A DNA stretch of 26,147 bases. It comes from Escherichia coli (GTDB taxonomy: Bacteria > Pseudomonadota > Gammaproteobacteria > Enterobacterales > Enterobacteriaceae). Each line of letters begins with the position of its first letter. The first letter of the stretch is position 1. The notes beneath the pieces are model-generated. The model had not been told where the DNA came from. It ran no database searches and saw only the letters and a program-made list of their open reading frames with translations. The stretch lies in NCBI RefSeq assembly GCF_003334355.1, contig NZ_QOWP01000043.1. One strand, written 5' to 3'. This document shows positions 1 through 4,820 of the stretch, one piece after another. The position numbers and the translations under genes were made by a program.

Positions 1-295
1 GGAAAAACGAGTATTTTTAGTCATCCTGTTTACCTCTTTCTCAGGGAGTTTAGTCTCCAGGATTTCCGGGGCGGTTCAAACTGCGTCCGACCAGTACGCA
101 CACAATGGAGGGGAGTACCATGAAACTGTTCTCTACACGAGACAGAGTGGTGGTGATGTGTTGATTATCGGCGTATATGCGCACAGGACGCGCTATGACA
201 ATGTTTTATGCGGGTACACCAATCACATGTATCTGGTGTGATAAATCGCGTTACATGACCTCTCATGTTGTGCTGGTGGTTATCACGACGTTCTG

Positions 296-345
296 AATCT
301 GGCTTTTGTCTGATATTTTGCGACAAGTACGCGCGCGTAACATCG
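296..345. repeat. Copy A of a diverged ~50-bp element (core GACAAGTACGCGC at 322..334)
   Basis: Direct comparison with 3001..3050: shared TCTGGCT ... TATTT(T/C)G.GACAAGTACGCGC.CGCGTA.CA in the same orientation, with weaker similarity continuing ~80 bp downstream. Confidence 0.5.
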
Positions 346-674
346 AAATTATCGGATGGCGTATGTTGCTGGCAAGATAAAGTCGGCGTAATACAAAGGC
401 GTTACTTGATAGCAGCAAGATTACAACAATGGTTGTTGAATTTGAGCGATGTAAGGAATTGATTTAGGGAGGCGCTGATGGCTAAAAAGTTCCACTACCA
501 GCGGATGAATGCGCCAGCGATGGCCGTTTGGTAGTAAAAGAGGAGCCATTCCTCAATCAGTTGAATACATTATGCCAACTAAATGGGTGGGGGCACTGTG
601 TGGGTATTCAGCGGTGACGGTATTTTTTAAGCCAAGGACTATCCGTAGCAGGGGGACTCATTTTGAAATATTTA

Positions 675-1112
675 TCATATGTAACTTATTATTTTAGATA
701 AAGATTTCCAGTTAAAGAAAAAAGTTATCATTGATATAATCAAATATGCCCCTGCGAGTAGCAGGGCATAATAATCCAGAGGCAGATTGCTGACAACAGG
801 GGCAAACATCGAGATCATTGCTAATAGGCAGGCTGTGATCAGCGTAGTTCCTGTATCAAAAAGCCCCTCAATAATGCCTTTTAGTACTCCGTTACTTTTT
901 AGAGCGCCTACAATTCCCTTTGAACTATCAAAGCTACTTAGCATGGTGACTGATGCCAAAACAAAACCAAAGAGAACTCCAGAAATAGTTGAAAGAGCAC
1001 CAGCAGCCGAAATGACAGCATTGTGATCTAGGTCGTGTAAAAAATGGGCACCAGCAATAGCCATAGCTAGAGCAAACAATGACTTGGCAGCAAACAATTT
1101 CCGAGAACTCAT
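675..1112 (-). CDS. Small integral membrane protein (145 aa), unknown function; downstream gene of a two-gene cassette
   Basis: ORF from track. Translation is dominated by 3-4 hydrophobic helix-length segments (e.g. LFALAMAIAGAHFL, AVISAAGALSTISGVLFGFVLASVTML, LITACLLAMISMFAPVV, YYALLLAGAYLIISMITFFF). ATG at 1112..1110 is preceded by AGGAA 7 nt upstream and lies only 12 nt from the stop of the upstream gene. AT-rich codon usage unlike the pao genes. No family recognised. Confidence 0.6.
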   Translation of the reverse strand: MSSRKLFAAKSLFALAMAIAGAHFLHDLDHNAVISAAGALSTISGVLFGFVLASVTMLSSFDSSKGIVGALKSNGVLKGIIEGLFDTGTTLITACLLAMISMFAPVVSNLPLDYYALLLAGAYLIISMITFFFNWKSLSKIISYI

Positions 1113-1124
1113 AATGTATTCCTG

Positions 1125-2210
1125 TTACGTTTGACTAACCAAATAGTACTGGGTTAGATACCTAAGGTTGTCATTCTTTGCTTGTAGCATAGCATTTTTA
1201 ACGTCAGTATCGGTCGGATACCCATCTGCTTGGATAGGCACCATCTTCTTTACCGTAAGAACTTCGTCTACAAGACTTTTCTTCTTTTTATCGCCCTGAG
1301 CAACAACATTTGCTTTCTCAAAAGTTAAACGACCATCACCACCAGGGAACTTTTCTAGCATCTCCTTAAGGCTTTTTTTAACGTCATCCTCAAGCCATCC
1401 CTTTGCTTTTCTTTTTAATGGAGAATGTCCGCGTAACGAAATAGTCAGGTGGCTTGAACTGGTGCCTCTGATCATCTCAATCATCTGATTCGCGAACATT
1501 CCATCGAGTTGATACTGTGCGGCATTGAAGTTTCTTGGGATGGCCACAGAAATCTCGCAGCTTCTTAGATTGGATCCAGTTTCGAGTAGTTCTTTGATGC
1601 TTTCTTCTTTCCAAATGGCTTCAAAAGAAACAGGGACTCCGCGATCACTGGAGTTGAAAAGAAGGAAGGCTAAGTCACTATGGCGTGGACCTAAATGATT
1701 TAAAGACAATACTAGAATGTCTGTCTGAGGATAATAAATAAAGTATGTACGTTCTGAAAGAGTCTTTGCCCCGGCTAGAGGGATTTTCTCTTCCACCCAC
1801 TCTTTATCTGTAATATATGCCAGTGTTGCGCTTTTTCTTCTTCGAGACATGAATCCGAAGTAGGAGCCATCCTCGGGTGAGATGTCTAGAAAATGAATTT
1901 TAAGTTCTCTTTCACCAAAGTCTGCATAGTGGGTCATCTTGAAGTCTTTAGAACACCGATCATACAGATTTTTAAAGGCCTCTGCGGTTAACCCCTTGTT
2001 ACTAGTGCGAATATTCTCAGAGCTTGTGTAAAAGCCCACCCTTACAGATTTCAAACTTTGATCTTTTGGTGCCACAGTCATTTGAGCTCCATTGTACTCT
2101 GCGATAGTTTTTGCACACCTTGAAATCAAAATCTCCATGTCAGTCACGAGAAAATAACTATGGATGAAACCCATCAAAGGCATTGAATACAGGTGGCTTT
2201 TGAGAATCAT
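1125..2210 (-). CDS. Hypothetical soluble protein (361 aa), unknown function; upstream gene of the two-gene cassette
   Basis: Long uninterrupted ORF on the minus strand, AT-rich, charged/hydrophilic, lysine-rich C-terminal third. I looked for nucleotidyltransferase (GS...DxD), reverse-transcriptase (YxDD) and P-loop motifs and found none convincing. Start codon choice (2210 vs internal Met) is uncertain. Confidence 0.55.
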   Translation of the reverse strand: MILKSHLYSMPLMGFIHSYFLVTDMEILISRCAKTIAEYNGAQMTVAPKDQSLKSVRVGFYTSSENIRTSNKGLTAEAFKNLYDRCSKDFKMTHYADFGERELKIHFLDISPEDGSYFGFMSRRRKSATLAYITDKEWVEEKIPLAGAKTLSERTYFIYYPQTDILVLSLNHLGPRHSDLAFLLFNSSDRGVPVSFEAIWKEESIKELLETGSNLRSCEISVAIPRNFNAAQYQLDGMFANQMIEMIRGTSSSHLTISLRGHSPLKRKAKGWLEDDVKKSLKEMLEKFPGGDGRLTFEKANVVAQGDKKKKSLVDEVLTVKKMVPIQADGYPTDTDVKNAMLQAKNDNLRYLTQYYLVSQT

Positions 2211-2540
2211 CCTAACCTGGTGACGGTGGTTCGCATATCCTGATGGATGATCAGTGATTAATCAATGCGCCAAGCAGATGTGTCTATGTGTTTGTTAATC
2301 ATTGCATGACAGTAGATCGACATGGGAGATCACGTTATATAGTTGAATTGTTAGGATATCCATGCACCGATCAACTGACTAGGCTGATGTGCTTTTTAGC
2401 AGGTGCCATATAGTAGTTAGGCGGTTCTGTGAAATGATTACTGTTCCAGCATAACTGCGGCATAAAGCGGTGCTATATAAGCTATTTGCTGGCGGATTTA
2501 GTCTTCACCGTTAATATATGTAGTGACTATTTGACAGAGT

Positions 2541-3050: not shown

Positions 3051-3276
3051 CCCAATCGGTGAGGAAATAGCGGCGACCTGAATGGTCAAAATCACAACGC
3101 AGCTATCCCCGTAAGCATCGCTTAACGGAATAGCAGTAACCTGAATCCAGTGGGGAGGGGGTAGTCAAATCTCTACAGGCCTGACTATCCGGGACTGCCC
3201 GCCCCATCGTTTTTTTATACCCGCGAAAAATGAAATTTAATCCGGGCGTGTTTCATCCTTCCAGAGGGTATGACGT

Positions 3277-3462
3277 ATGACACCACGCGAAATAGCCTTA
3301 TTGACCATCGCCAAACTTGAGCACGGAGGCCACCAGCTTACACAGGCAGATCAACGGGAGATAGAACGATCAGTTAATGCCGATATAGCCCGGCGCGACA
3401 GGTTCCGCGAAATGATGCGAGCACCTGCCTACCAGTGGAAGAAGCCAGCGCCGCGCAGGTAG
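3277..3462 (+). CDS. Hypothetical small protein (61 aa)
   Basis: ORF with GAGGG about 9 nt upstream of the ATG; charged, arginine-rich C-terminus. No family recognised; could be non-coding. Confidence 0.35.
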   Translation: MTPREIALLTIAKLEHGGHQLTQADQREIERSVNADIARRDRFREMMRAPAYQWKKPAPRR

Positions 3463-3582
3463 ATATGGGATTATTCCACATGTAACTTATGCGTATTAAG
3501 CAAATTTCCTTTATTCACCTTTACAGAATTGTGAGTACGTCAGTATCGTTATCCTTCCGATTCGCATTTATTCAGGATTTGC

Positions 3583-4125
3583 ATGTACCAGCTAAAGATA
3601 ACCATCCGAGACAGCAAACCACCTATATGGCGGCGTGTGCTGGTTCCAGAGCAAATCCCCTTTAGTAAACTTCATGCCGTGATCCAGTTAGCTTTTGGCT
3701 GGAATGACGAACACCTGTATATGTTCGAGAAAGGGCGTAAAGGTGATCCAGGTAGCGAGTATCGCGTATGGGGTGAGGATGAAAGCATGGGTAACGCGGC
3801 AATCACGCCACTATGGGCGGCGCTCCAGAATGAGGGTGACAAGCTGGTTTACACGTATGACTTTGGCGACTGGTGGGATTGCGTCATTGTGCTGGAGAAG
3901 CAAACACACGATACGAGTAATCAGCCCATTAGCTGCCTGCGTGGGAAAGGCACCACCCCGGCGGAAAACTCAGGCGGCTTGCATGGTTACAATGAATTGC
4001 TATTACAGGCCAGAGAGTCTGATAATCCTGAGCAGGCCGAGATCCACAATTTCCTGATGCTGGATATTGAACGCCGGGTTTACGACCTGAGCCGCATCAA
4101 CGACAGATTGCAGGCTATTAACTGA
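3583..4125 (+). CDS. pRiA4b ORF-3-like family protein (PF07929-like), 180 aa
   Basis: Translation carries the motifs I associate with this family: KPPIWRRVLVP ... LHAVIQLAFGWNDEHLYMF ... YTYDFGDWWDCVIVLE. Normal E. coli-like GC content. Confidence 0.65.
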   Translation: MYQLKITIRDSKPPIWRRVLVPEQIPFSKLHAVIQLAFGWNDEHLYMFEKGRKGDPGSEYRVWGEDESMGNAAITPLWAALQNEGDKLVYTYDFGDWWDCVIVLEKQTHDTSNQPISCLRGKGTTPAENSGGLHGYNELLLQARESDNPEQAEIHNFLMLDIERRVYDLSRINDRLQAIN

Positions 4126-4477
4126 CCCGCATGTATTCACCTGATATTGCGTTATCAGCGCCGCCAGTATCGCGCATAACAGCACAATGACCGGGTAAAC
4201 CGTAACGCACGACCGTTGCGTTAGTCTCACCGCCGCGCCGTATCTGGCGCGATTCATACACTGTCACCCGCTCAAGCAGTCCACCAGCAACCATGCTTTC
4301 CAGTGTGCGCCGGGTTGATTCGAGCTGGTGACGCTTATCGAACGACACCATGCCATGAAGCAGGTAGGCCACACCCGACACATCGAACGGCGGCGCACCA
4401 ATCTCACCAGTCACCCATTCGAGGTTATCTGGTTCAAAGTAGCTAAGTATCTCTTTTTTGCGGCTGGTCATTCTCAT
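4118..4477 (-). CDS. Hypothetical protein (119 aa), possible winged-helix fold
   Basis: ORF with AAGGAA upstream of the ATG; convergent with the pRiA4b-like gene and overlapping its 3' end by 8 bp (4118..4125). No family recognised. Confidence 0.4.
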   Translation of the reverse strand: MRMTSRKKEILSYFEPDNLEWVTGEIGAPPFDVSGVAYLLHGMVSFDKRHQLESTRRTLESMVAGGLLERVTVYESRQIRRGGETNATVVRYGLPGHCAVMRDTGGADNAISGEYMRVS

Positions 4478-4820
4478 GGCTGGCTGATTCCTTATTGTGG
4501 GATAGCACTATCATACAATAAGTGGGTTAAAGGGAGAGCGTTACCGCCTGATATGCTGTATGAATAACAACCAAATTTCAGGGGCGGAAAAAGATATGGG
4601 GGTACTTTTGGGGGTATCTATAAAAAATGAACAATAAAAAAGGCAACAAAAACAAAGCTTATCGCCTATGTGTATTGTTCCTATTATCGCACCATTAAAA
4701 TCAAAGAGTTACCCCATATTTAAATACACCACGTTTCCTCCTGTGCCGTATTTGTGCCATTGTAACCTTGGCAATTCATCAAAATACTGTTCTGACATCA
4801 GGCAGTGCAGGTGCAGACAT

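Follow-up and report, generated by a model that had tools for sequence, protein, structure and literature searches.

An EcCIMP1-family phage satellite at thrW of Escherichia coli and the putative RexAB-like operon in its cargo slot

Background

RexAB of phage lambda is among the oldest known phage-exclusion systems, and we know of no mechanistic explanation for it to date. Its RexA component also exerts a RexB-independent regulatory effect on the lambda bistable switch through non-specific DNA binding (PMC11077077). EcCIMP1, the phage-inducible chromosomal island (PICI) of E. coli MP1 (GenBank OR778291), is the other point of reference: it occupies thrW, its published att core is TCCTATTATC, and its excision, circularisation and transfer by transduction in MP1 depend on the P22-like helper phage Kapi1, a dependence demonstrated for this type element only (ISME J 2025, PMC11773190). 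In C. rodentium, its protein EcCIMP1_025 acts as a silencer of LEE1 expression (PMC11773190).

The DNA considered here (the window, 26,147 nt in all) begins with a segment for which the original prediction was an accessory island of open type (integrative element, satellite or prophage remnant) lying against a decayed LysR gene. By gene content and by identity to EcCIMP1, the stretch from 79 to about 4688-4694 represents the right-hand, distal arm of a PICI of the EcCIMP1 family in thrW: satellite is the right choice among the three, and the question of type is closed by an island family that has already been published. Because the thrW-yagP junction carries the right arm of that family, no new category is required. 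The features are as follows.

1-78, minus strand: terminal 78 nt of IS1203/IS629 (IS3 family), inverted-repeat tip at 78, orfA ATG at 24-22, reading leftwards
79-382, unstranded: conserved sequence bordering the PICI cargo slot on its left; intact elements have it immediately to the right of the ejection-protein module
383-2538, minus strand: variable cargo slot allele, 2,156 bp, AT-rich, with a two-gene operon (DUF6731 protein and four-transmembrane, or 4-TM, partner)
2554-2668, unstranded: ori-like iteron block, two copies of GTTGGTTCA, an AT-rich spacer, then three of TGAACCAAC
2698-2979, plus strand: PerC/ANR-like small regulator, identical to EcCIMP1_025
3277-3462, plus strand: 61-aa conserved PICI gene
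3583-4125, plus strand: conserved right-arm gene, 180-aa pRiA4b ORF-3 family protein (family name from RefSeq annotation)
4118-4477, minus strand: conserved right-arm gene, 119-aa hypothetical protein
4596-4617, plus strand: ATGGGGGTACTTTTGGGGGTAT, repeated beside the integrase gene at the opposite end of intact elements
4679-4694, plus strand: attR, the true right island boundary, with core TCCTATTATC at 4679-4688 inside a 16-nt thrW 3' remnant (TCCTATTATCG-CACCA)
4695-4820, unstranded: native chromosomal spacer downstream of thrW, non-island sequence
4821-5159, minus strand: yagP, C-terminal remnant of a LysR-family gene, N-terminus missing, on the paoD side

The right arm and its boundary

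From 2539 to 4696 the DNA is 98.5% identical to EcCIMP1. The PerC-like, 61-aa and pRiA4b-ORF3 proteins are each 100% identical to their EcCIMP1 counterparts; the 119-aa protein, for which profile searches return no family match, differs from that of MP1 at 2 residues. The PerC/ANR-like protein matches NCBIfam ANR_neg_reg at 1.6e-7 and also PHROG transcriptional activators, and the 61-aa protein matches phrog_7271 at 2e-6. The iteron block repeats, in inverted orientation, the one found immediately after the PICI primase gene (78-84% identical to L001 14992-15117, L004 13905-14030 and L006 19295-19403, these being loci of the comparison set). On the other side of the slot, the left flank is 93-95% identical to EcCIMP1 and to four further EcCIMP1-like elements.

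An island of this identity should end in an attR, and it does. The core TCCTATTATC occurs once in the window, against 0.02 occurrences expected by chance, and the GCACCA directly after it is the 3' end of thrW minus one G. Matches in other genomes stop at 4688-4712 and K-12 homology begins at 4679, placing the end of the island at about 4688-4694 rather than at 4820. The 126 nt beyond, 4695-4820, are identical to the sequence right after thrW in empty-site genomes (unoccupied thrW-yagP sites exist in other genomes) and to that after the CP4-6 attR in K-12. Judged from these features, the junction at 4679-4694 is a classical tRNA-gene attR: the integrase would recombine the 10-bp core with the 3' end of thrW and leave the 16-nt remnant behind. 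ATGGGGGTACTTTTGGGGGTAT, which is direct repeat D5 of locus L001 (6309-6330 and 24518-24539, 95% identical), is a putative integrase arm-type binding site.

Two of the earlier statements need amending on this point. It had been said that no integrase, tRNA or att repeat is visible: the window does lack an integrase and a complete tRNA, but the att repeat and a thrW fragment are present at 4679-4694. It had also been said that nothing left of yagP has a K-12 counterpart: blastn finds no K-12 homology left of 4679, but the spacer at 4695-4820 is identical in K-12. That K-12 carries intF and a tRNA-Thr (thrW) fragment at the corresponding place was correctly stated.

How widely is the segment distributed? 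At least 80% of window 1-4820 is present in 32 of 5,426 complete E. coli genomes (0.6%; the source genome is not among them), the cargo allele 383-2538 in 42 (0.8%, every copy at least 99% identical) and the conserved right arm in 270 (5%). The segment is accessory, as proposed, and far from the presence in essentially all E. coli that would mark it as core. Its composition agrees with what had been noted of the first ~2.7 kb: GC is 0.39-0.45 across 1-2750 vs 0.58-0.61 in the pao genes.

The gene abutting the spacer is indeed decayed. Of the LysR profiles, ORF 4821-5363 covers the C-terminal substrate-binding part alone (positions ~186-297). RefSeq labels it "LysR substrate-binding domain, missing N-terminus" and marks it as a pseudogene in island-bearing genomes and in the island-free strain ATCC 8739. 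The suggestion that this truncation marks an old insertion junction fails on orientation and on comparison: yagP presents its intact C-terminus and stop codon (4821) to the island, and the N-terminal HTH part that it lacks belongs on the paoD side; moreover, ATCC 8739 has the identical N-terminally truncated yagP 126 bp from an unoccupied thrW, so that the decay of yagP is independent of the island.

The cargo slot and its gene pair

Between the same slot flanks, seven elements hold five different contents: 1,204 bp with alpA_1 in EcCIMP1 and 898-1,914 bp of different genes in other elements, AbiD or small HTH genes among them. This comparison identifies 383-2538 as one allele of a swappable cargo slot. 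The AbiD allele is recognized by PADLOC at 4.9e-58; since a defined slot thus counts a bona fide Abi gene among its alleles, it is a small place with clear bounds in which to look for defence genes. What, then, is the operon in the present allele?

1125-2081, minus strand: RexA-like gene, 318 aa, cytosolic, DUF6731/PF20505 family, phrog_7651
675-1112, minus strand: RexB-like gene, 145 aa, four transmembrane helices, phrog_8552, starting 12 nt past the RexA-like stop codon

The larger, cytosolic component has a RexA-like fold, and the four helices of its 145-aa partner emerge from hydropathy and from the AF2 model alike (the AF2 model behind this reading of the cargo is of moderate confidence: pLDDT 71, pTM 0.66). 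In hhalign, the broad DUF6731 family profile aligns with the RexA family at prob 88.6% and E 2.7e-6 over 253 collinear columns, vs E of at least 0.055 for all 30 shuffled profiles; the narrow profile gives no significant match to RexA. Aligned in the same way, the partner and RexB give a weak score, prob 21% and E 1e-3 over 62 columns, which is above 30 of 30 shuffles; RexB is not among the top 50 Foldseek hits for the membrane partner. The pair matches neither the PADLOC RexA/RexB models, which lambda RexA and RexB match strongly, nor Pfam RexA/RexB, nor NCBIfam. It looks like a distant, unannotated relative of lambda RexA/RexB.

At 50% identity, DUF6731 has about 170 clusters in a set of 1.84 billion representative proteins. 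Each of the DUF6731 genes examined, 10 of 10, is followed by a small membrane-protein gene, homologous or analogous; among their contexts are lambdoid phage cdtI, where the pair separates Q from the lysis genes, the end of a Rahnella prophage and a Vibrio Vinavirales prophage, beside the integrase. By analogy, the pair would work like lambda RexAB in phage defence: a dimer of the RexA-like protein would respond to a signal from the infecting phage, DNA or nucleoprotein in nature, and activate the membrane partner, which would depolarise or permeabilise the membrane; infection would be aborted, and the lysogen and the satellite population protected. The wider proposition is that DUF6731 and its four-helix partner constitute a branch of the RexAB-type abortive-infection systems that has diverged in sequence and escaped recognition, and that moves as a cassette between a PICI slot, lambdoid prophages and tectivirus-like Vinavirales prophages; we put the chances of its being right at about even.

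Two other readings accept the island and dispute the function. 1) The pair may not be anti-phage at all, instead modulating lysis-lysogeny or replication of the satellite or its helper, or serving as a stabiliser of the toxin-antitoxin or addiction type. The documented regulatory role of RexA without RexB (PMC11077077) lends itself to this reading, as do the ori-like iteron block directly upstream of the operon and the regulator-like alpA_1 in the EcCIMP1 slot. Against this, the pair moves as a unit among unrelated mobile elements (a PICI, lambdoid prophages, a Vinavirales prophage) and sits at a moron position in all of them, a spread typical of host-benefit defence cargo and not of element-specific regulation; in another element the slot is taken by AbiD. 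We judge a regulatory or stabilising role in place of defence to be conceivable and on the unlikely side. 2) DUF6731 and RexA may be alike because they converged on the generic RdgC/RexA/IML3 DNA-binding fold or have shared it since very ancient times, the pair having an unrelated function such as membrane-anchored DNA handling. As a DNA-binding fold, that of RexA/RdgC is a general one, and fold similarity by itself is consequently no proof of a role in defence; we nonetheless think this reading improbable.

Should the RexAB-type reading hold, current defence finders would miss the DUF6731 pair, and the link would improve the annotation of defence systems: the slot allele ties an uncharacterised Pfam family to lambda RexA. 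It would also provide a compact, easily cloned, E. coli-native branch as comparative material on key residues and RexA-RexB contacts.

The element behind the arm

Beside thrW in the intact copies of UPEC132, KP63 and 21EVA the complete PICI gene order can be read, in elements of about 20 kb. It runs from thrW/attL through a tyrosine integrase, an AlpA-type regulator, an antirepressor, Ash, a TOPRIM/DUF927 primase and the iteron ori to P22-type gp14/7/20/16-like ejection-protein genes, the cargo slot, the perC-like, 61-aa, pRiA4b-ORF3 and 119-aa genes, and attR. The satellite backbone, made up of integrase, AlpA and primase/ori and free of virion and lysis genes, is seen in 21EVA, KP63, UPEC132 and MP1, and both island ends are seen in UPEC132 and MP1. 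The window copy shows the attR end only, with attL beyond the window; the expectation that the integrase and mobilisation genes lie outside it was sound.

The first 78 nt are the end of an insertion sequence, not island DNA: they match copies annotated as "IS3-like element IS1203 family transposase" at 100% identity, and 3,550 genomes contain them. The IS-island junction at 78/79 is absent from all 5,426 complete genomes of the collection just described. IS1203 has inserted at 78/79 in the source genome, interrupting or truncating the island. Because it may have truncated the element, the window copy may be an immobile remnant; remnants do occur elsewhere, as in HCM-25C-3.

P22, too, integrates in thrW. 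A rival reading takes the segment for the right end of a P22-like (Lederbergvirus) prophage that has decayed, with the sieA-region moron cluster of that prophage as cargo. It fits the location, the gp14/7/20/16-like genes directly preceding the segment in UPEC132, KP63, MP1 and others, and the situation in HCM-25C-3, where a truncated terminase gene marks the fusion of the segment with a lambdoid prophage, but this reading is largely refuted and scarcely credible: the ejection genes of intact copies sit in a ~20-kb unit bounded by the att core, together with integrase, AlpA, antirepressor, Ash, primase and iterons; these genes are all of the P22 repertoire that the intact relatives have, capsid, portal, terminase, tail, tailspike, lysis, repressor and immunity genes being absent; and both excision and transduction of the type element require a helper phage (PMC11773190). 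Taken together, it is very probable that the segment is the right arm of an EcCIMP1-family PICI in thrW, interrupted by IS1203 and carrying a putative RexAB-like operon in its cargo slot.

Comparison with known systems

The nearest relative of the island is EcCIMP1, which uses the same thrW site and the same att core. The right arm is common to both, and the left flank of the slot is 94% identical. They differ in what the slot holds (a 1.2-kb segment with alpA_1 in EcCIMP1, the 2.16-kb DUF6731 and 4-TM operon in the window), in the IS1203 that interrupts only the window copy, at 78/79, and in what lies next door: the window copy directly adjoins yagP/pao, EcCIMP1 a vat island. The CP4-6 cryptic prophage of K-12 shares the attachment locus (thrW ... 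yagP) and the native sequence right of attR; it has no sequence homology with the island left of 4679, and its architecture is different, with a 49-nt thrW repeat and intF at the yagP-side end, as opposed to 16 nt and an integrase at the thrW-proximal end.

For the cargo the comparison is with lambda RexA/RexB (PDB 8TWQ; Pfam PF15969/PF15968; PADLOC RexA/RexB). The gene order is the same, and lambda rexB, at 144 aa with four hydrophobic segments, resembles the smaller gene of the window pair. The differences are as plain: lambda RexA and the 318-aa protein are about 15% identical, homology to RexB is only suggestive, and the window pair, unlike its lambda counterpart, does not lie beside a CI repressor. 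RexABpp of the Pseudomonas putida P1 prophage (Sci Rep 2026, PMC12894663) belongs to another host and another carrier, the immunity region of a prophage; the pair described here resides in the cargo slot of a satellite.

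An EcCIMP1-family island at thrW

What kind of element occupies window 79-4694? It is almost certainly the IS-interrupted right arm of an EcCIMP1-family phage-inducible chromosomal island (PICI), a known kind of phage satellite; this assignment is made because intact relatives adjoin thrW, because an att core is present, and because the segment is nearly identical to the corresponding locus of E. coli MP1. In UPEC132, KP63 and 21EVA the segment constitutes the right end of a ~20-kb element adjoining thrW, in which a tyrosine integrase is followed by an AlpA-type HTH, the antA/antB antirepressor, DUF4222, Ash, several small genes, a TOPRIM/DUF927 primase, P22-type gp14/7/20/16-like ejection-protein genes, the genes seen in the window, and the att core; capsid, tail, lysis and repressor genes are absent from these elements. 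EcCIMP1 itself, a PICI of 19,963 bp, occupies thrW in E. coli MP1 and has TCCTATTATC as its att core; its excision and transduction occur solely with the P22-like helper Kapi1, and its PerC-like regulator, EcCIMP1_025, silences LEE1 expression (PMC11773190). The MP1 locus matches window 79-382 at 94% and window 2539-4696 at 98.5%; the PerC-like, 61-aa and pRiA4b-ORF3 proteins are 100% identical to those of EcCIMP1, with two residues changed in the 119-aa protein. Membership of the family, the attR and thrW integration site, and the allelic nature of the cargo slot (below) thus come from the present comparisons, while the literature on the type element (PMC11773190) is the source for its dependence on a helper in excision and transfer, and for what the PerC-like protein does as a regulator.

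A satellite embedded in its helper, that is, integrated in a late gene of a prophage (PMC10111431), is rejected: in the intact elements it is thrW att cores that form the boundaries, and the ejection genes lie inside. A variant of CP4-6 is rejected for the lack of homology left of window 4679.

The original prediction of an AT-rich accessory segment with no K-12 counterpart is borne out. The GC fraction, from ORF listing and composition, is 0.39-0.45 over window 1-2750, 0.47-0.54 over 2750-4500, and 0.58-0.61 in the pao genes on the right side. K-12, which carries intF and a thrW fragment at this place, has no blastn homology left of window 4679. The segment is accessory and not core, since just 32 of 5,426 complete E. 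coli genomes cover at least 80% of window 1-4820 (megablast). With a coverage of at least 80% required, 270 genomes have the conserved arm. Fusions also occur: in some genomes, such as HCM-25C-3 (locus L005, 19636-20001), the arm from window 215 rightwards is joined to a lambdoid prophage at thrW, within a terminase gene that is truncated, and in other matches it is joined to DUF932 or DUF2824 genes. Such joints to foreign genes suggest recurrent deletion or recombination remnants at the thrW locus.

The ends of the segment

The right end was placed too far out, at 4820, in the original prediction, which also saw no att repeat or tRNA fragment. A single copy of the att core TCCTATTATC is present in the window, at 4679-4688 (0.02 occurrences expected by chance), and is directly followed by GCACCA, so that 4679-4694 is the 3' end of the tRNA-Thr gene thrW with one G missing. 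(A technical note: ARAGORN reports no tRNA, and Rfam at E up to 0.1 finds nothing in window 1-5400.) Window 4695-4820 is native thrW-downstream sequence, as it stands in genomes with an unoccupied site and, beyond the CP4-6 attR, in K-12; the right end of the island therefore lies at about 4688-4694. At a coverage threshold of 80%, 1,897 genomes match, a figure that takes in CP4-6-type attR sites as well as empty thrW sites. About 60 bp inside attR, at window 4596-4617, stands ATGGGGGTACTT(T/A)TGGGGGTAT, which recurs in 21EVA (L001, the closest complete genome) at 6309-6330, where it closely precedes the integrase gene, at the attL end; the copies at both element ends are plausibly integrase arm-type binding sites.

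The decayed yagP gene had been read as the likely mark of an old insertion junction. Truncation of this LysR gene is confirmed: the minus-strand ORF at 4821-5363 matches just the C-terminal ~110 positions of LysR-family models, and in other genomes RefSeq calls the equivalent stretch a pseudogene, 'LysR substrate-binding domain ... missing N-terminus'. Its role as the junction is not sustained: towards the island the gene is intact, with its C-terminus and stop codon (4821), and it is the N-terminal DNA-binding part, on the paoD side, that is gone. Moreover, the empty site of E. coli ATCC 8739 reads proA, thrW, 126 bp, the same N-terminally truncated remnant, paoD; because the truncation there is identical, the decay of yagP is older than the island or independent of it. 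(In 21EVA, paoA carries a frameshift and ecpB a stop codon within its frame, at L001 29246-29936 and 36721-37389.)

On the left, window 1-78 belongs to an insertion sequence and not to the island; these 78 nt match the terminus of IS1203/IS629 with 100% identity and recur in 3,550 genomes. The junction of IS1203 with the island at 78/79 is absent from all 5,426 complete genomes. Window 26071-26147 is an IS1 end. With one edge inside each of these insertion sequences, the window is probably an entire draft contig broken at repeats.

A cargo slot with alternative contents

Window 383-2538 is without counterpart in EcCIMP1, which has 1.2 kb with alpA_1 in its place. Between the common flanks (on the left, 79-346/382; on the right, from 2539, 2561 or 2680), the contents vary from element to element:

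Contents of the cargo slot
This window: 2,156 bp, DUF6731 and four-helix membrane protein operon
MP1 (EcCIMP1): 1,204 bp, alpA_1-type HTH gene
O111:H8 8234: 1,193 bp, HTH gene
N25 and APEC E18005: 898 bp, two small genes
AR_0017: 1,914 bp, AbiD-family abortive-infection gene (locus L022, 4419-5396; PADLOC 4.9e-58) and one hypothetical gene

The allele of the window is present in 42 of the 5,426 complete genomes, in single copy and always at least 99% identical. In APEC E18005 there is also another point of insertion, separating the 61-aa and pRiA4b genes (locus L023, 6905-8157; its edges correspond to window 3464 and 3581). It holds genes for a Panacea-domain protein and a 144-aa hypothetical protein; neither is matched by PADLOC, and the two resemble a PanA-type toxin-antitoxin pair.

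An iteron-like block (window 2554-2668) separates the cargo operon from perC and is made up of two copies of GTTGGTTCA, an AT-rich spacer and three copies of TGAACCAAC. It is an inverted second copy, 78-84% identical, of the block directly downstream of the PICI primase gene (L001 14992-15117, and 13905-14030 and 19295-19403 in the further loci L004 and L006), which is presumably the ori. EcCIMP1-type elements therefore have two ori-like sites, bracketing the ejection-gene module and the cargo slot; the second could be another origin, could titrate Rep, or could serve recombination in the exchange of modules. A separate 29-nt direct repeat, TCTGrTATTTyGsGACAAGTACGCGCrCG (copies 76-86% identical), is seen in the left slot flank (window 309-337), just downstream of perC (3015-3043) and, a third time, at L001 19945-19973. 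Promoter- and terminator-like sites in window 300-3100 are in no excess over shuffled expectation.

The cargo operon

The slot of the window encodes two proteins:

Cargo genes
1125-2081, minus strand: 318-aa protein, GGAG Shine-Dalgarno before the ATG
675-1112, minus strand: 145-aa protein with four hydrophobic helices, 12 nt downstream of the 318-aa gene

PADLOC and NCBIfam searches with all six island ORFs, and Pfam searches with the two cargo proteins, give nothing informative for either of the latter; in PHROGs they fall in two families of 'unknown function'. Pfam DUF6731 is present in more distant homologues of the 318-aa protein, and literature searches for DUF6731 and PF20505 turned up no paper that mentions the family. 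It is a small one: a profile search of 1.84 billion representatives, with E up to 1e-3 accepted, collects only 171 clusters. The pair is nevertheless conserved as a unit across very different mobile elements. It is found in phage cdtI between Q and the lysis genes, in an E. coli prophage adjoining the lysis cassette, at the end of a Rahnella prophage, and beside the integrase of Vibrio phage 10N.286.54.F4_PE001 (L008 1389-2896), a Vinavirales prophage of 14.6 kb, tailless and PM2/autolykivirus-like; the pair is also kept in all five of five distant family members from metagenomes. The Vinavirales instance implies that the cassette crosses from satellites of tailed phages to a different viral realm.

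Comparison with RexAB

The 318-aa protein has a RexA-like fold. Probable remote homology to RexA emerges from profile comparison by hhalign, and solely with the broad profile of 159 sequences (Neff 6.7). Against the 25-sequence RexA family this profile scores 48.2 (probability 88.6%, E 2.7e-6) over 253 collinear columns, residues 14-313 aligning with RexA 2-270; 30 column-shuffled controls score at most 20.0, with E at least 0.055, and reversed and cross-family controls are null. A narrow profile from a 29-sequence alignment gave non-significant matches to lambda RexA and the RexA family, yet the invariant GP..SDL motif (G131-P132...D136-L137) was matched repeatedly. Among PDB sequences a profile search found nothing, and the BFVD entries found by Foldseek for the 318-aa model were RdgC and uncharacterised proteins of phages. 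On balance we consider true homology to RexA likely.

The partner has RexB-like architecture, and its profile gives a weak signal with the RexB family (probability 21%, E 1e-3, above 30 of 30 shuffles); Foldseek of its model against AFDB50 returned uncharacterised proteins alone, RexB not being among the best 50 matches.

Were the cargo to work in the manner of RexAB, infection would lead a DNA-binding sensor dimer to switch on the membrane effector; depolarisation and abortive infection would follow, to the benefit of the host, the satellite and possibly the helper. We lean slightly towards such a defence function. Defence finders would miss the pair, because the PADLOC RexA and RexB models match the lambda proteins at 9e-110 and 9e-61 and leave those of the window unmatched.

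The island is thus real and mostly accounted for by published work; the sole new element is its probable RexAB-type cargo, in which the 318-aa and 145-aa genes keep the order of lambda: rexA (279 aa), then rexB (144 aa, four hydrophobic segments).
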